The position numbers and the translations under genes were made by a program. Source: Escherichia coli (GTDB lineage: Bacteria; Pseudomonadota; Gammaproteobacteria; Enterobacterales; Enterobacteriaceae). From it: 64,000 nucleotides of DNA. The stretch is taken from the NCBI RefSeq assembly GCF_046105845.1, contig NZ_CP151004.1. One strand, written 5' to 3'. A model generated the notes under the pieces. The model ran no database searches and was not told where the DNA came from. It saw nothing but the letters and a program-made list of their open reading frames with translations. Below, piece after piece: positions 519 to 31,070 of the stretch (position 1 is the stretch's first letter; every line of letters begins with the position of its first letter).

Positions 519-1667
519 ATGAGTCTGAAAGAAAAAACACAATCTCTGTTTGCCAACGCATTTGGCTACCCTGCCACTCACACCATTCAGGCGCCTGGCC
601 GCGTGAATTTGATTGGTGAACACACCGACTACAACGACGGTTTCGTTCTGCCCTGCGCGATTGATTATCAAACCGTGATCAGTTGTGCACCACGCGATGA
701 CCGTAAAGTTCGCGTGATGGCAGCCGATTATGAAAATCAGCTCGACGAGTTTTCCCTCGATGCGCCCATTGTCGCGCATGAAAGCTATCAATGGGCTAAC
801 TACGTTCGTGGCGTGGTGAAACATCTGCAACTGCGTAACAACAGCTTCGGCGGCGTGGACATGGTGATCAGCGGCAATGTGCCGCAGGGTGCCGGGTTAA
901 GTTCTTCCGCTTCACTGGAAGTCGCGGTCGGAACCGTATTGCAGCAGCTTTATCATTTGCCGCTGGACGGCGCACAAATCGCGCTTAACGGTCAGGAAGC
1001 AGAAAACCAGTTTGTTGGCTGTAACTGTGGGATCATGGATCAGCTAATTTCCGCACTCGGCAAGAAAGATCATGCCTTGCTGATTGACTGCCGCTCACTT
1101 GGGACCAAAGCAGTTTCCATGCCGAAAGGTGTGGCTGTCGTCATCATCAACAGTAACTTCAAACGTACCCTGGTTGGCAGCGAATACAACACCCGTCGTG
1201 AACAGTGCGAAACCGGTGCGCGTTTCTTCCAGCAGCCAGCCCTGCGCGATGTCACCATTGAAGAGTTCAACGCTGTTGCGCATGAACTGGACCCAATCGT
1301 GGCGAAACGCGTGCGTCATATCCTGACTGAAAACGCCCGCACCGTTGAAGCTGCCAGCGCGCTGGAGCAAGGCGACCTGAAACGTATGGGCGAGTTGATG
1401 GCGGAGTCTCATGCCTCTATGCGCGATGATTTCGAAATCACCGTGCCGCAAATTGACACTCTGGTAGAAATCGTCAAAGCTGTGATTGGCGACAAAGGTG
1501 GCGTACGCATGACCGGCGGCGGATTTGGCGGCTGTATCGTCGCGCTGATCCCGGAAGAGCTGGTGCCTGCCGTACAGCAAGCTGTCGCTGAACAATATGA
1601 AGCAAAAACAGGTATTAAAGAGACTTTTTACGTTTGTAAACCATCACAAGGAGCAGGACAGTGCTGA
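519..1667 (+). CDS. galK: galactokinase
   Basis: 382 aa, near-identical to E. coli GalK ([42 protein letters not shown]...); GHMP kinase motifs visible. Confidence 0.97.
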
Positions 1668-2701
1668 ACGAAACTCCCGCACTGGCACCCGATGGTCAGC
1701 CGTACCGACTGTTAACTTTGCGTAACAACGCAGGGATGGTAGTCACGCTGATGGACTGGGGTGCGACTTTACTTTCAGCCCGTATTCCGCTTTCCGATGG
1801 CAGCGTCCGCGAGGCGCTGCTCGGCTGTGCCAGCCCGGAATGCTATCAGGATCAGGCCGCGTTTCTGGGGGCCTCTATTGGTCGTTATGCCAACCGTATC
1901 GCCAATAGCCGTTATACCTTTGACGGTGAAACCGTGACGCTTTCGCCAAGTCAGGGCGTTAACCAGCTGCACGGCGGCCCGGAAGGGTTCGACAAACGTC
2001 GCTGGCAGATTGTGAACCAGAACGATCGTCAGGTGCTGTTTGCCCTGAGTTCAGATGATGGCGATCAGGGTTTCCCGGGTAATCTCGGCGCGACGGTGCA
2101 ATATCGTCTGACCGACGATAACCGTATCTCCATTACTTATCGCGCCACAGTTGATAAACCTTGCCCGGTGAATATGACTAATCACGTCTATTTCAATCTT
2201 GACGGCGAGCAGTCTGACGTGCGCAATCACAAGTTGCAGATTCTGGCGGACGAATATCTGCCGGTTGATGAAGGCGGCATTCCGCACGACGGCCTAAAAT
2301 CTGTCGCCGGAACGTCTTTTGATTTCCGCAGCGCCAAAATCATCGCCAGTGAGTTTCTTGCCGACGACGATCAGCGCAAAGTGAAAGGTTACGATCACGC
2401 GTTCTTGTTACAGGCCAAAGGCGATGGCAAGAAAGTGGCGGCGCATGTCTGGTCAGCAGATGAAAAATTGCAGCTGAAGGTCTACACCACCGCTCCGGCT
2501 CTGCAATTCTACTCCGGCAACTACCTCGGCGGCACACCGTCGCGGGGAACCGAACCTTACGCCGACTGGCAAGGGCTGGCGTTGGAAAGCGAGTTTCTGC
2601 CGGACAGCCCGAACCACCCTGAATGGCCGCAACCGGACTGCTTCCTGCGTCCTGGCGAAGAGTATTCCAGCCTGACGGAATATCAGTTTATTGCTGAGTA
2701 A
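1661..2701 (+). CDS. galM: aldose 1-epimerase (galactose mutarotase)
   Basis: 346 aa, GTG start overlapping the galK stop; matches E. coli GalM ([28 protein letters not shown]...). Confidence 0.96.
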
Positions 2702-2705
2702 TGTT

Positions 2706-2734
2706 AAGCCCTCGTCATGAGGGCTTTATCTTCA
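2706..2734 (+). terminator. candidate hairpin terminator after galM
   Basis: Inverted repeat aagccctc/gagggctt followed by a T-rich tract, directly after the galM stop. Confidence 0.35.
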
Positions 2735-2833
2735 TATTGTTCAAATCACCAGCAAACACCGACATATTTGCAACTCAATATTCACAACAACCTTACACTG
2801 CGACACTATTTTCGCTATGGTTATGCGTAAGCA

Positions 2834-2875
2834 TTGCTGTTGCTTCGTCACGGCAATATAATGAGAATTATTATC
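2834..2875 (+). promoter_or_regulatory. gpmA promoter with Fur-box-like operator overlapping the -10
   Basis: tataat at 2857-2862 with ttgctg 17 bp upstream; 2857-2875 tataatgagaattattatc matches 16 of 19 positions of the Fur box consensus GATAATGATAATCATTATC; gpmA is a reported Fur-regulated gene. Confidence 0.5.
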
Positions 2876-2903
2876 ATTAAAAGATGATTTGAGGAGTAAG
2901 TAT

Positions 2904-3656
2904 ATGGCTGTAACTAAGCTGGTTCTGGTTCGTCATGGCGAAAGTCAGTGGAACAAAGAAAACCGTTTCACCGGTTGGTACGACGTGGATCTGTCTGAGA
3001 AAGGCGTAAGCGAAGCAAAAGCAGCAGGTAAGCTGCTGAAAGAGGAAGGTTACAGCTTTGACTTTGCTTACACCTCTGTGCTGAAACGCGCTATCCATAC
3101 CCTGTGGAATGTGCTGGACGAACTGGATCAGGCATGGCTGCCCGTTGAGAAATCCTGGAAACTGAACGAACGTCACTACGGTGCGTTGCAGGGTCTGAAC
3201 AAAGCAGAAACCGCTGAAAAGTATGGCGACGAGCAGGTGAAACAATGGCGTCGTGGTTTTGCGGTGACTCCGCCGGAACTGACTAAAGATGATGAGCGTT
3301 ATCCGGGTCACGATCCCCGTTACGCGAAACTGAGCGAGAAAGAACTGCCGCTAACGGAAAGCCTGGCGCTGACCATTGACCGCGTGATCCCTTACTGGAA
3401 TGAAACTATTCTACCGCGTATGAAGAGCGGTGAGCGCGTAATCATCGCTGCACACGGTAACTCGTTACGTGCGCTGGTGAAATATCTTGATAACATGAGC
3501 GAAGAAGAGATTCTTGAGCTGAATATCCCGACTGGCGTGCCGCTGGTTTATGAGTTTGACGAGAACTTCAAACCGCTGAAACGCTATTATCTGGGTAATG
3601 CTGACGAGATCGCGGCGAAAGCAGCGGCCGTTGCAAACCAGGGTAAAGCGAAGTAA
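2904..3656 (+). CDS. gpmA: 2,3-bisphosphoglycerate-dependent phosphoglycerate mutase
   Basis: 250 aa from ATG 2904 ([17 protein letters not shown]...); the ORF-track TTG start at 2889 is rejected as an upstream extension; RHGE histidine phosphatase motif. Confidence 0.96.
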
Positions 3657-3803: not shown

Positions 3804-4856
3804 TTACCCGCGACGCGCTTTTACTGCATTCGCCAGCTGACGTAACAGAGCATCGGTATCATCCCAGCCAATGCAGGCATCGGTGATGCTCTTGCCATAG
3901 GCCAGCGGTTCCCCACTCTCGAGGCTCTGATTGCCTTCCACCAGATGGCTTTCCACCATTACGCCAATAATAGCCTTTTCGCCACCGGCAATCTGCTGGC
4001 AAACGTCAGCACAAACATCCATCTGCTTTTTGAATTGTTTCGACGAGTTAGCATGGCTGAAATCGATCATCACCAGTGCTGGCAGGCCTGCTTTGTTCAG
4101 TCCTTCTTTCACTTCAGCAACGTGCTTCGCGCTGTAGTTAGGCTCTTTACCGCCGCGCAGAATGATATGGCAATCGCCGTTACCGCTGGTATTCACAATC
4201 GCCGAATGCCCCCATTTCGTTACGGACAGGAAGCAGTGCGGCGCACCAGCGGCATTAATGGCATCGATAGCCACTTTAATCGTACCATCAGTGCCATTTT
4301 TGAAGCCTACCGGGCAAGAAAGACCAGACGCCAGTTCGCGGTGCACCTGCGATTCCGTAGTACGTGCGCCAATTGCGCCCCAGCTCATCAGGTCAGCGAG
4401 ATATTGTGGGGTGATCATATCGAGGAATTCACCCGCCGCTGGCAGACCGCTGTCGTTAATATCGAGCAGCAATTTGCGGGCAATACGCAGACCGTCGTTG
4501 ATCTGGAAGCTGTTATCCATATGCGGATCGTTAATCAGCCCTTTCCAGCCCACCGTAGTACGCGGCTTTTCAAAATAGACGCGCATCACGATTTCCAGCT
4601 CATCTTGCAGCTCTTCACGCAGCGTCAGCAAGCGAGTGGCATACTCTTTAGCCGCGACAGGATCATGAATTGAGCACGGACCAATCACAACCAACAGGCG
4701 ATCATCATTACCTTTCAGGATCTTATGAATCGCTTTTCGGGCATGGGCGACCGTATTCGCGGCATTTTCAGTAGCGGGGAATTTTTCCAGCAATGCGACA
4801 GGAGGAAGTAACTCTTTGATTTCTTTGATGCGTAAATCGTCGTTCTGATAATTCAT
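3804..4856 (-). CDS. aroG: Phe-sensitive DAHP synthase (3-deoxy-7-phosphoheptulonate synthase)
   Basis: 350 aa, near-identical to E. coli AroG (MNYQNDDLRIKEIKELLPPVALLEKFPATE...). Confidence 0.97.
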   Translation of the reverse strand: MNYQNDDLRIKEIKELLPPVALLEKFPATENAANTVAHARKAIHKILKGNDDRLLVVIGPCSIHDPVAAKEYATRLLTLREELQDELEIVMRVYFEKPRTTVGWKGLINDPHMDNSFQINDGLRIARKLLLDINDSGLPAAGEFLDMITPQYLADLMSWGAIGARTTESQVHRELASGLSCPVGFKNGTDGTIKVAIDAINAAGAPHCFLSVTKWGHSAIVNTSGNGDCHIILRGGKEPNYSAKHVAEVKEGLNKAGLPALVMIDFSHANSSKQFKKQMDVCADVCQQIAGGEKAIIGVMVESHLVEGNQSLESGEPLAYGKSITDACIGWDDTDALLRQLANAVKARRG

Positions 4857-8647: not shown

Positions 8648-8776
8648 ACATTGGTGGGTCGTGCAGGATGACTCGCTTCGCTCGCCCTACGGGCCGTCGC
8701 CGCGAGCGGCTCCGTTATTTCGCTGCGCTCAACTCGAACCTGCTGCAGGTTCGAATCTTTGAGTATCGCAGATAGC

Positions 8777-8803
8777 AAAAAAGCGCCTTTAGGGCGCTTT
8801 TTT
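8777..8803 (-). terminator. rho-independent terminator immediately 3' of lysQ
   Basis: Same hairpin plus T-run as 8621-8647, directly downstream of the last tRNA-Lys. Confidence 0.65.
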
Positions 8804-8807
8804 ACAT

Positions 8808-8883
8808 TGGTGGGTCGTGCAGGATTCGAACCTGCGACCAATTGATTAAAAGTCAACTGCTCTACCAACTGAGCTAACGACCC
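8808..8883 (-). tRNA. lysQ: tRNA-Lys (anticodon UUU)
   Basis: Minus-strand sequence is the canonical E. coli tRNA-Lys GGGTCGTTAGCTCAGTTGGTAGAGCAGTTGACTTTTAATCAATTGGTCGCAGGTTCGAATCCTGCACGACCCACCA, including CCA. Confidence 0.97.
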
Positions 8884-8916
8884 CTTGCGGGATTATGCTG
8901 CTTTAATCATTCAGGA

Positions 8917-8992
8917 TGGTGGGTCGTGCAGGATTCGAACCTGCGACCAATTGATTAAAAGTCAACTGCTCTACCAACTGAGCTAACGACCC
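8917..8992 (-). tRNA. lysZ: tRNA-Lys (anticodon UUU)
   Basis: Identical 76-nt tRNA-Lys copy. Confidence 0.97.
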
Positions 8993-9040
8993 ATACGGGT
9001 GTTACCTGAAAGATTTCTACTCGGAACCAATCTTTAAAAT

Positions 9041-9110
9041 TGGTGGGTCGTGCAGGATGACTCGCTTCGCTCGCCCTACGAGCCGTTGCTGACGCAACGT
9101 TATCCTTCAC
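9041..9110 (-). repeat. spacer repeat containing an 18-nt tRNA-Lys 3'-end fragment
   Basis: tggtgggtcgtgcaggat (3' end of tRNA-Lys) followed by gactcgcttcgctcgccctacg...cgttgctgacgcaacgttatccttcacg; a near-identical unit recurs at 9534-9607 and a diverged one at 8652-8760. Confidence 0.6.
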
Positions 9111-9138
9111 GCTTAACATCTGAGTTTGATGTTAAAAT

Positions 9139-9214
9139 TGGTGGGTCGTGCAGGATTCGAACCTGCGACCAATTGATTAAAAGTCAACTGCTCTACCAAC
9201 TGAGCTAACGACCC
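9139..9214 (-). tRNA. lysY: tRNA-Lys (anticodon UUU)
   Basis: Identical 76-nt tRNA-Lys copy. Confidence 0.97.
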
Positions 9215-9217
9215 GAG

Positions 9218-9293
9218 TGGTGGGTGATGACGGGATCGAACCGCCGACCCCCTCCTTGTAAGGGAGGTGCTCTCCCAGCTGAGCTAATCACCC
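9218..9293 (-). tRNA. valZ: tRNA-Val (anticodon UAC)
   Basis: Minus-strand sequence GGGTGATTAGCTCAGCTGGGAGAGCACCTCCCTTACAAGGAGGGGGTCGGCGGTTCGATCCCGTCATCACCCACCA, canonical tRNA-Val(UAC). Confidence 0.97.
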
Positions 9294-9344
9294 GATACTG
9301 CGCTGGATACTACAAACTACTTCCACCGAACCCACCGTAATTAG

Positions 9345-9420
9345 TGGTGGGTCGTGCAGGATTCGAACCTGCGACCAATTGATTAAAAGTCAACTGCTCT
9401 ACCAACTGAGCTAACGACCC
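9345..9420 (-). tRNA. lysW: tRNA-Lys (anticodon UUU)
   Basis: Identical 76-nt tRNA-Lys copy. Confidence 0.97.
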
Positions 9421-9422
9421 GG

Positions 9423-9498
9423 TGGTGGGTGATGACGGGATCGAACCGCCGACCCCCTCCTTGTAAGGGAGGTGCTCTCCCAGCTGAGCTAATCACCC
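9423..9498 (-). tRNA. valT: tRNA-Val (anticodon UAC)
   Basis: Identical tRNA-Val(UAC) copy, 2 nt after lysW. Confidence 0.97.
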
Positions 9499-9533
9499 GA
9501 TACTACGCTGGATACTACAACTAACTAGGTTAG

Positions 9534-9607
9534 TGGTGGGTCGTGCAGGATGACTCGACTTCGTCTCGCCCTTCGGGCCGTTGCTGACGCAACGTTATCC
9601 TTCACGT
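9534..9607 (-). repeat. spacer repeat containing an 18-nt tRNA-Lys 3'-end fragment (second copy)
   Basis: Same truncated tRNA 3' end plus shared spacer sequence as 9041-9110. Confidence 0.6.
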
Positions 9608-9633
9608 TTTACTACCGCTTCCACCTTAGCGAT

Positions 9634-9709
9634 TGGTGGGTCGTGCAGGATTCGAACCTGCGACCAATTGATTAAAAGTCAACTGCTCTACCAACTGAGC
9701 TAACGACCC
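9634..9709 (-). tRNA. lysT: tRNA-Lys (anticodon UUU), first gene of the operon
   Basis: Identical 76-nt tRNA-Lys copy; promoter-proximal position in the minus-strand operon. Confidence 0.97.
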
Positions 9710-9873: not shown

Positions 9874-10665
9874 TTACATCGCGTTAAGACGTTTTTGTGC
9901 CTGTTTAGCGCCATCAGTACCAGGGTATTTACTGATAACCTGCTGGTATACGGCTTTCGCTTTTGCGGTGTCACCTTTGTCCTGCATGATGACACCGACT
10001 TTAAACATCGCATCTGCAGCCTTTGGCGACTTCGGATAGTTTTTTACTACCGAAGCAAAATAGTACGCCGCATCATCTTTTTTACCCTTGTTGTAGTTTA
10101 ACTGACCCAGCCAATAATTGGCGTTTGGCAGGTAAGTTGAATCAGGGTAATTTTTGATGAAATTCTGAAATGCCACCATTGCGTCATCCTGGCGGGATTT
10201 ATCCTGCACCAGCGCAATTGCTGCATTGTAATCCGTGTTTGCATCACCGCTTTTCACCGGCGCGCCAGCATTCGCAGTACCAGCATCAGCTGTCGGCGTC
10301 GTTGATGCCGCCGCACCGCTTTGATCGCCGCTGGTTGATTGCGCCGCTGCACCACCGCTGCTGAGGCTATCGATCTGCAACAGGATCTGCTTTTGCCGCT
10401 CCACGACCTGATTCAGTTGATACTGATTTTCCTGAATCTGACCACGCAGGGAATCAATATCGGATTGATTATCAGAGAGTTGTTGCTGGAGTTGGGTTAA
10501 AAGCTGGCTGTGAGCATTTGAAATACGCTCAAGTTGAGTGACGCGGTCTTCGACCGAGCCTGAGCCGACACTACTGATTGGTGCCTGAGCAAAAGCGGCC
10601 CAGGGGGCCGCTATACCAACCAGTAACGACAGACTCAATAGTTGATGTCTGAAGTTACTGCTCAT
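9874..10665 (-). CDS. cpoB: cell division coordinator CpoB (YbgF), TPR protein of the Tol-Pal cluster
   Basis: 263 aa, signal peptide, coiled-coil then TPR repeats; matches E. coli CpoB. Confidence 0.95.
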   Translation of the reverse strand: MSSNFRHQLLSLSLLVGIAAPWAAFAQAPISSVGSGSVEDRVTQLERISNAHSQLLTQLQQQLSDNQSDIDSLRGQIQENQYQLNQVVERQKQILLQIDSLSSGGAAAQSTSGDQSGAAASTTPTADAGTANAGAPVKSGDANTDYNAAIALVQDKSRQDDAMVAFQNFIKNYPDSTYLPNANYWLGQLNYNKGKKDDAAYYFASVVKNYPKSPKAADAMFKVGVIMQDKGDTAKAKAVYQQVISKYPGTDGAKQAQKRLNAM

Positions 10666-10674
10666 GCAATTCTC

Positions 10675-11220
<546 letters not shown>

Positions 11221-29417: not shown

Positions 29418-31070
29418 ATGTCAAAACCATTTATCTGGCAAGAACCGTTTCTACAAAATAAAGACGGTACAGAATATACATTAATTAGCGATCAGCATAT
29501 TACAGTAACGGAATTAGACGGCGAAGAAGTGATAAAAATCGCTCCTGAAGCATTAACGCTGCTTGCCCGGCAGGCATTTTATGAAGCCTCTTTTTTCTTA
29601 CGTTCCGCTCATTTGCAACAGGTCGCCAGCATTCTTAACGATCCGCAGGCCAGTAGTAATGATAAATACGTTGCGTTGCAGTTATTACGTAATGCTGAAG
29701 TCTCAGCAAAAGGGGTATTACCCAACTGTCAGGATACCGGCACCGCAACTATTGTTGCCAGTAAAGGGCAACAGATATGGACGGGAGGTAACGACGCTGA
29801 AGCCTTAAGCAAAGGCATTTACAGTACTTTCCAGGAAAATAATCTGCGCTTTTCACAAAATGCGCCGCTGGATATGTATACCGAAGTCAATACGCAAACC
29901 AATCTCCCGGCGCAGATTGATATCAGCGCTGTCGCTGGTAATGAGTACCATTTTCTCTGTGTTAATAAAGGGGGCGGCTCCGCCAATAAAGCCGCGCTTT
30001 ATCAGGAAACCAAATCCCTATTGCAACCAGAAAAACTGACCGCATTTTTAATCGAAAAAATGAAATCGCTGGGCACCGCTGCCTGCCCGCCTTACCACAT
30101 CGCCTTTGCCGTCGGAGGGCTTTCAGCCGATCAAACCTTAAAAGTTGCCAAGCTGGCCTCAACGAAATATTACGACAATTTGCCCACCAGCGGAAACGAG
30201 CAGGGACAAGCATTCCGTGATATTGAGCTGGAAAAAGTGTTGCTCGAGGCCAGTCAGCAATTTGGTATTGGTGCGCAATTTGGGGGTAAATATTTCGCTC
30301 ATGATATTCGCGTCATTCGTCTGCCGCGTCACGGTGGCTCTTGCCCGATAGCTATGGCGCTCTCCTGTTCTGCCGATCGCAATATCAAAGCAAAAATTAA
30401 CAAGCACGGTATCTGGCTGGAAAAACTCGAACACAATCCGGGGCAATATATTCCAGCCTCACTGCGGGAAGAAAACCACGCGCAACATGTACAACTGGAT
30501 CTAAACCGTCCGTTGCGTGACGTGATGCAGGATCTCGCCAGATTACCGGTAGGCACCCGCGTGTCGTTAAATGGTCCCATCGTAGTGGCGCGCGATATCG
30601 CCCACGCCAAAATAAAAGCGCGGCTGGATAGCGGCGAACCGATGCCGGATTACCTGAAGCATCATATTGTCTATTACGCTGGCCCGGCGAAAACACCTGA
30701 TAACATGGCCTGCGGTTCACTGGGTCCAACCACGGGCGGTCGAATGGACGGTTATGTCGATACCTTCCAGGCGGCTGGCGGCAGCCTGGTGATGTTATCG
30801 AAAGGTAACCGCAGCCAGCAGGTCACCGATGCCTGTCACAAACATGGCGGCTTCAATCTGGGAAGTATTGGCGGTGCAGCTGCGTTACTGGCGCAAGAAT
30901 ATGTCAAAAGTCTGCGTTGCCTGGAATACCCGGAGCTGGGTATGGAAGCGGTGTGGATGATGGAAGTGGAAAATCTGCCCGCATTCATTCTGGTAGATGA
31001 TAAAGGCAATAATTTCTTTAGTCAGTTTGAACAGCAACACCGCTGCGCCAGTTGCCCTGCGGGACATTAA
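29418..31070 (+). CDS. fumD: class I (Fe-S, FumA/FumB-type) fumarate hydratase paralog, probable mesaconase/fumarase
   Basis: 550 aa, collinear with E. coli FumA/FumB throughout (PFIWQEPF..., CQDTGTA, GGGSANK, CPPYHIA, HGGSCP) but clearly divergent; sits in the methylaspartate operon. Confidence 0.9.

Follow-up and report, generated by a model that had tools for sequence, protein, structure and literature searches.

A Fur operator overlaps the −10 element and start site of the gpmA promoter gpmAP1 in Escherichia coli

Introduction

At the classical Fur-repressed promoters, among them those of aerobactin iucA, fepA-fes, fhuA and ryhB, a 19-bp Fur box built as an array of hexamers lies over the core promoter, and Fe2+-Fur represses transcription. 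Occlusion is the standard mechanism for an operator placed over a core promoter in this way. The gpmA gene of E. coli, formerly called pgm, carries a textbook-type Fur operator with the same layout. This operator has been on record since 2000; an information score and a gel shift came in 2007, a mapped transcription start in 2009 and ChIP-seq confirmation in 2020 and 2023. It differs from the classical cases in three respects. First, the target is a glycolytic isozyme and not an iron-uptake gene. Second, another promoter lies upstream, outside the operator. Third, the evidence consists of gel-shift and ChIP data; no DNase I footprint for gpmA was found in the literature searched, and the evidence code given for the site is "G" (PMC2189734, Table 4). 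Overlap with a promoter is a frequent feature of such sites, with 303 of 363 predicted Fur clusters overlapping a σ70 promoter (Chen et al., PMC2189734).

A second described system bears on what this control might be for. Staphylococcus aureus has a metal-free phosphoglycerate mutase (dPGM, GpmA) and a Mn-dependent one (iPGM, GpmI), and the metal-free form is favored under metal limitation: Mn-independent GpmA sustains glycolysis, backing up GpmI under the metal starvation imposed by calprotectin. E. coli likewise has two unrelated phosphoglycerate mutase isozymes, the cofactor-dependent, metal-free GpmA and the Mn-dependent GpmM. The S. aureus case concerns another organism, and the stress there is sequestration of Mn or Zn by calprotectin.

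We analyzed a 64-kb stretch of E. coli DNA (hereafter the window, meaning the whole stretch at its full length) in which a preliminary description, made from the sequence, had placed the −10 hexamer of a gpmA promoter inside a strong Fur box and proposed simple occlusion by Fur. That observation is real and was correctly interpreted, yet it had already been published. Since gpmA has been recognized as a direct Fur target since 2000, the observation has little value as a discovery, and it illustrates that a tool-free reading of sequence can recover a real operator/promoter overlap. Here, we determine the significance of the Fur-box match and its geometry relative to the mapped start site, and we find that the operator is strongly conserved. 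What is modestly new is limited to comparative, sequence-based support for an upstream promoter that appears σS-like and for a dual constraint on the hexamer that the operator and gpmAP1 share.

Results and Discussion

The gpmA Locus

The gene order in the window is galK, galM, a 202-bp intergenic region and gpmA, followed by a convergent aroG (Table 1). galM, the last gene of the gal operon, is the upstream neighbor of gpmA here. Gene names were also taken from RefSeq, which annotates identical DNA in E. coli chromosomes. The gpmA product is a 2,3-bisphosphoglycerate-dependent, metal-independent phosphoglycerate mutase of 250 aa with its ATG at 2904, and the intergenic DNA (2702-2903) is 63% A+T.

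A 311-bp query spanning window positions 2650-2960 was found in 5,425 of 5,426 complete E. coli genomes. In the same set, records labeled as plasmids account for two of the copies of this galM-gpmA region, each with the Fur-box core, and at least one complete genome carries the region in duplicate. The locus is the same as the K-12 gpmA (pgm) Fur site. The K-12 start-site sequences given by Olvera et al. match the window except for A for C at 2803 and A for G at 2850, both of which fall outside the Fur box and the promoter hexamers; there is no other difference of substance. Because of these two SNPs, we take the window strain to be a non-K-12 E. coli. The K-12 derivatives J53 and JM109 are 98.4% identical to the window over 126 bp.

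A hairpin followed by a U-rich tail begins directly 3′ of the galM stop codon. Its fold energy is −15.4 kcal/mol (z = −3.65), and none of 200 shuffles was equally stable. A terminator scanner made no call at 2706-2732, and the hairpin sequence is poorly conserved, with a mean identity of 33% between genera. The hairpin is likely an intrinsic terminator that would set gal operon transcription apart from gpmA, and as such it would plausibly insulate gpmA from read-through out of the gal operon.

Table 1. Positions of the features discussed in the text. Coordinates are those of the window unless a locus of another species is given.
Feature	Position	Strand	Evidence or remark
galM	1661-2701	+	NCBIfam galactose-1-epimerase, 631 bits; RefSeq annotation
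Hairpin AAGCCCUC-GUCAU-GAGGGCUU (2706-2726) with U-rich tail	2706-2732	+	Directly 3′ of the galM stop codon
gpmAP3-P4: −35 TTACAC (2793-2798), 17-bp spacer, C-TATGGT −10 (2815-2821), start A at 2829	2793-2829	+	5′RACE
−35 TTGCTG of gpmAP1	2834-2839	+	Sequence; 3/6 vs TTGACA
−10 TATAAT of gpmAP1, the first Fur-box hexamer	2857-2862	+	Sequence, 6/6; start 5 nt downstream
Fur box TATAATGAGAATTATTATC	2857-2875	+	16/19; from −10 to +9 relative to the gpmAP1 start and from +29 to +47 relative to the start of the upstream promoter
Four in-register NATWAT hexamers TATAAT, GAGAAT, TATTAT, CATTAA	2857-2880	+	0, 1, 0 and 1 mismatches
Best 7-1-7 inverted repeat TGAGAAT-T-ATTATCA	2862-2876	+	13/14 vs TGATAATnATTATCA; dyad center 2869
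gpmAP1 transcription start, A 37 nt before ATG	2867	+	5′RACE and genome-wide pyrosequencing (PMC2759082)
Shine-Dalgarno GAGGAG of gpmA	2891-2896	+	Sequence; conserved in alignment
gpmA CDS	2904-3656	+	NCBIfam equivalog NF010713, 467.8 bits (cut-off 305); RefSeq annotation
aroG	3804-4856	−	NCBIfam equivalog, 736 bits
Long-leader locus, Intestinirhabdus alba	L031:1345-1500		
Long-leader locus, Enterobacteriaceae RIT714	L044:1332-1500		
Long-leader locus, Klebsiella michiganensis	L063:1403-1500		
Long-leader locus, Raoultella terrigena	L074:1329-1500		
Long-leader locus, Klebsiella indica	L076:1331-1500		
Long-leader locus, Enterobacter sp. BIGb0383	L079:1414-1500		

The Fur Box Begins with the −10 Element of gpmAP1

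We compared the 19-mer TATAATGAGAATTATTATC directly with the Fur consensus GATAATGATAATCATTATC. It agrees at 16 of 19 positions, as had been described, and the mismatches fall at positions 1, 9 and 13. The TTGCTG −35, the 17-bp spacer (2840-2856) and the perfect TATAAT are likewise all where the preliminary description had placed them. Its statement that TATAAT lies inside the Fur box holds for the overlap as such; the hexamer is the first of the 19-mer and does not sit in its middle. A −10 look-alike within a Fur box is no independent coincidence, because the Fur hexamer GATAAT is one base away from TATAAT.

The sequence features of a Fur operator are all present at this site beyond chance expectation: the 19-bp consensus, a 7-1-7 inverted repeat and at least three NATWAT hexamers. 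The hexamer array reaches downstream of the 19-mer, and its limits (2857-2880) are likely the extent of multi-dimer Fur binding.

The position of the start site comes from Olvera et al. (PLoS One 2009, PMC2759082), who reported, in all strains tested, a main gpmA start preceded by the sequence ...GCAATATAATGAGAA. Their 5′RACE and pyrosequencing results agree on this start, which lies 37 nt before the ATG and 2 nt from the start inferred by Vassinova and Kozyrev (PMC2759082). On the window, the start falls at 2867, so that the 19-mer runs from −10 to +9 and the hexamer array extends to +14. With +1 at this position, bound Fur would cover both the −10 element and the start point. The promoter shows two hexamers at a spacing of 17 bp, within the 16-18 bp of a σ70 promoter, with a mapped start downstream. 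Its −35 is weak, and the distance from the −10 hexamer to the start is shorter than the usual 7 nt. 5′RACE ends can be trimmed.

A promoter scanner that requires at least 4/6 matches in each hexamer omitted gpmAP1, since TTGCTG matches at only three positions. The candidate that it offered instead, TCGTCA-18-TATTAT (2845-2874), was rejected: its −10 would lie downstream of the start mapped at 2867, and conservation points to TATAAT and TTGC instead.

The Operator and gpmAP1 Are Conserved across Enterobacteriaceae

To assess conservation, we used a scan of one genome per species, which yielded 80 gpmA loci from ~25 genera of Enterobacteriaceae plus Samsonia, or 81 sequences counting the window. 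The alignment holds 74 distinct sequences, and identity was taken relative to the window. A Fur-box match of 14-18 out of 19 was the best one upstream of gpmA in 80 of the 81 sequences, starting 40-52 bp before the ATG in most of them. In the alignment, mean identity reached 99.8% at the −10, 93% over the 19-mer and 87% at the −35, compared with 56-67% in the flanking spacer and 94% over the first 30 coding bases. Hence, the operator is conserved at orthologous promoters. Among 5,426 complete E. coli genomes, 5,415 carry the 32-bp core (2851-2882) without a single change.

The pattern of variation is informative at the level of single bases. Counted without an alignment, the −10 is TATAAT at 79 of the 81 loci and TACAAT at the other two, and TTGC stands upstream of it at every locus, with a spacing of 17 bp at 25 loci and of 18 bp at 56. 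Together, the mapped start and this conservation identify TATAAT as a real −10 element. Positions 1-8 and 15-19 of the box are invariant or nearly so, as is the flanking position 20 (invariant), and variation clusters at the central positions 9, 13 and 14. Position 1 is a T in 81/81 sequences. This base is a mismatch to the Fur consensus, in which G is preferred, whereas σ70 relies on it in the −10 hexamer. Because the T is invariant, the comparison argues for a shared hexamer that would be constrained by both proteins, Fur and σ70; this is a modestly new item.

The locus from Samsonia erythrinae (L037:1450-1468) is the only one from outside Enterobacteriaceae. It keeps TATAAT and a TTGCCG −35, its Fur box has decayed to 12/19, and the TTACAC promoter found upstream in other species (see below) is missing. 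As far as can be judged from these sequences, control of gpmA by Fur may be limited to Enterobacteriaceae.

Six species have the promoter and Fur box 87-172 bp before the gpmA ATG, farther than the usual 40-52 bp (Table 1). The difference is due to an additional GC-rich leader segment of 40-125 nt that separates the box from the ribosome-binding site. An Rfam search of the extra leaders in the six species matched no family. The leader of Raoultella terrigena, the sole one folded, showed no excess stability over its shuffles (z = −1.1). Alignment of the inserts from different genera was poor.

A Second, Conserved Promoter Lies Outside the Fur Box

A second gpmA start, an A 75 nt before the ATG preceded by CCTTACACTGCGCCACTATTTTCGCTATGGTTATGCGTA, was reported by Olvera et al., who named its promoter gpmAP3-P4 and scored it at 7.48 for σ38 against 5.80 for σ70 (PMC2759082). 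The start was obtained by 5′RACE alone, and the authors state that no second method confirmed it; its band was weaker in one rpoS− strain (PMC2759082). In the 74-sequence alignment, we found a second block, at ~2793-2818, in which conservation is 95% or higher and on a par with that of the operator; it coincides with the promoter of this start. The pattern TTACAC-17-C-TATKKT, with C at −13, is present in 77 of 81 sequences, and its −10 ends at a fixed 35-36 bp before the −10 of gpmAP1. This conservation supports the upstream promoter as real, and by its sequence it appears σS-like. A CRP, FNR or ArcA site at 2793-2818 was considered and rejected: inspection by eye gave no convincing palindrome or direct repeat, and the block is accounted for by the promoter of the −75 start.

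The Fur box lies outside the elements of gpmAP3-P4. It falls at +29 to +47 of the transcript from that promoter, and Fur could act on it at most as a roadblock. The proposal of simple occlusion is supported: geometry, Fur binding and Fur-dependent repression all fit it. As an account of gpmA control, occlusion of P1 is probably incomplete, since a second promoter, with its start at 2829, is not overlapped by the box. We tentatively suggest, with somewhat less than even confidence, a conserved two-promoter unit in which Fur would shut P1 fully, and the σS-like promoter upstream would read through or be partly blocked, giving an iron-independent input in stationary phase or under stress. Only two parts of this proposal go beyond the literature searched: the cross-species evidence in favor of the upstream promoter, and a possible Fur roadblock to its transcripts. 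The conserved upstream promoter thus offers a small, testable refinement.

A roadblock could also be taken as the main event. On that reading, Fur chiefly stops transcripts arriving from the promoter that starts at 2829, and TATAAT is a hexamer for Fur alone, which looks like a −10 element without being used as one. Roadblocks, however, seldom give 16-fold repression, the level known for gpmA in one E. coli strain (see below). Fur hexamers (GATAAT) do by nature resemble TATAAT, but this likeness would not account for position 1 of the box, where T is kept throughout although Fur prefers G, nor for a TTGC −35 kept at 17-18 bp from it at every locus. The −75 start exists by 5′RACE, its promoter elements are conserved in nearly all the sequences and the box does lie within its transcript; the −37 start, in turn, was found by two independent methods in all strains tested, and the −75 start stands without a second confirmation (PMC2759082). 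A σ70 promoter overlapping the site was also scored by Chen et al. (PMC2189734). We consider it improbable that a roadblock is the main effect of Fur here, and we favor action at gpmAP1 itself.

Fur Acts Directly at gpmA

Published experiments have established that Fur binds this site in vitro and in vivo, that it represses gpmA independently of RyhB and where the transcript starts. The first evidence was the in vivo selection of a Fur-binding fragment by Vassinova and Kozyrev (Microbiology 2000), under the name pgm, and gpmA then appeared in the microarray of Fur-regulated genes by McHugh et al. (JBC 2003), both as reported in PMC2189734. Chen, Lewis, Shultzaberger et al. (NAR 2007, PMC2189734, Table 4) assigned gpmA a Fur cluster of 27.4 bits, with five overlapping sites over 31 bp, a score shared with yoeA as the highest in their table of strong predicted clusters. 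They centered the site 35 nt upstream of the start codon (PMC2189734). In the window, 35 nt before the ATG is position 2869, which is the dyad center that we computed, so that the published site and ours are in the same place. A gpmA oligonucleotide was shifted by 150 nM Fur in vitro (PMC2189734).

Genome-scale data agree. In the uropathogenic strain CFT073, Fur ChIP-seq gave a summit of 677 at gpmA, and RNA-seq gave ratios to wild type of 16 in the fur mutant, 1.0 in the ryhB mutant and 17 in the double mutant; gpmA was scored as analogously regulated in MG1655, with a conserved 5′ sequence (PMC7157518, Table S1). A study from 2023 that combined ChIP-seq and RNA-seq again identified gpmA as a direct Fur target (PMC10219339), and in Salmonella Typhimurium gpmA rose 5.6-fold in a fur deletion (PMC3212961). 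The iron-dependent control that had been proposed is thus borne out by fur-mutant data from both E. coli CFT073 and Salmonella, and the proposed binding by the gel shift, the in vivo selection and ChIP-seq. Neither an absence of Fur binding nor an absence of an expression change, the two outcomes that would speak against the proposal, is what these studies found.

These data leave very little room for indirect control, with RyhB or some other regulator relaying the iron signal to gpmA and the match to the Fur box being incidental. Many metabolic genes do respond to Fur indirectly (PMC2189734; PMC10219339), but loss of ryhB left gpmA unchanged, the double mutant equaled the fur mutant (PMC7157518), and Fur bound directly in gel shift (PMC2189734) and ChIP-seq (PMC7157518, PMC10219339). 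We regard this reading as very unlikely and retain direct repression by Fur.

The match itself is far from what chance would supply. TATAATGAGAATTATTATC at 2857-2875 is the sole site with three or fewer mismatches to the Fur consensus on either strand of the window, and 100 dinucleotide-preserving shuffles of the window contained zero Fur-box matches at this threshold. An exact Poisson-binomial calculation at window composition gave P = 8.7e-8 per position, or 0.011 sites expected per 64 kb. That an AT-rich intergenic sequence without a regulatory role should have produced the match is a negligible prospect: the 63% A+T of the intergenic DNA does raise the expectation ~7-fold, but still only to 0.08 sites per 64 kb, and the box is conserved far above the neighboring spacer, its core is the same in nearly all E. 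coli genomes and Fur binding has been shown experimentally (PMC2189734, PMC7157518).

A Model for Iron Control of gpmA

We are highly confident that this site is the Fur operator of E. coli gpmA P1, at which Fe2+-Fur bound over the −10 and start would repress transcription. In this model, Fe2+-Fur dimers bind the hexamer array at 2857-2880 as long as iron is sufficient, and the strongest element of the array is the 7-1-7 repeat centered at 2869. The array covers the −10 (2857-2862) and the start (2867) of the σ70 promoter, so that bound Fur would prevent open-complex formation by RNA polymerase, and gpmA is repressed. Once iron runs short or Fur loses its activity, the operator is vacated and gpmA rises ~5- to 16-fold. 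The second, σS-like promoter, starting at 2829 outside the box, may provide expression that is independent of Fur or only partly blocked by it.

We infer steric exclusion of RNA polymerase by Fur at P1 from the geometry. Occlusion is also implicit in the choice of oligonucleotide by Chen et al., who picked gpmA since their σ70 promoter model overlapped the Fur site, making it a predicted Fur-controlled σ70 promoter (PMC2189734). No in vitro transcription, order-of-addition or RNA polymerase competition assay at the gpmA promoter was found in the literature searched.

Placing a metal-independent phosphoglycerate mutase under an iron sensor may serve to raise its level at times of limited metal supply or limited Fe-dependent respiration. 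This metal-sparing reading is plausible for E. coli because of the S. aureus GpmA precedent and because Fur also represses mntH, sodA and nrdHIEF in the same regulon (PMC7157518, Table S1). The S. aureus parallel is an analogy only; an experiment in which gpmA derepression bypasses GpmM in E. coli was not found in the literature searched.

Other Features of the Window

One further Fur-box-like sequence is present in the window, at 29937-29955. It matches at 15/19 positions on the − strand and at 14/19 on the + strand, and it sits within an ORF of 550 aa at 29418-31070. The wider region also contains ordinary catalogued features: seven tRNA genes interleaved with three repeats of the RtT family at 8652-9709 on the − strand, and a CpoB/ybgF thermometer element at 10636-10774 (142 bits).
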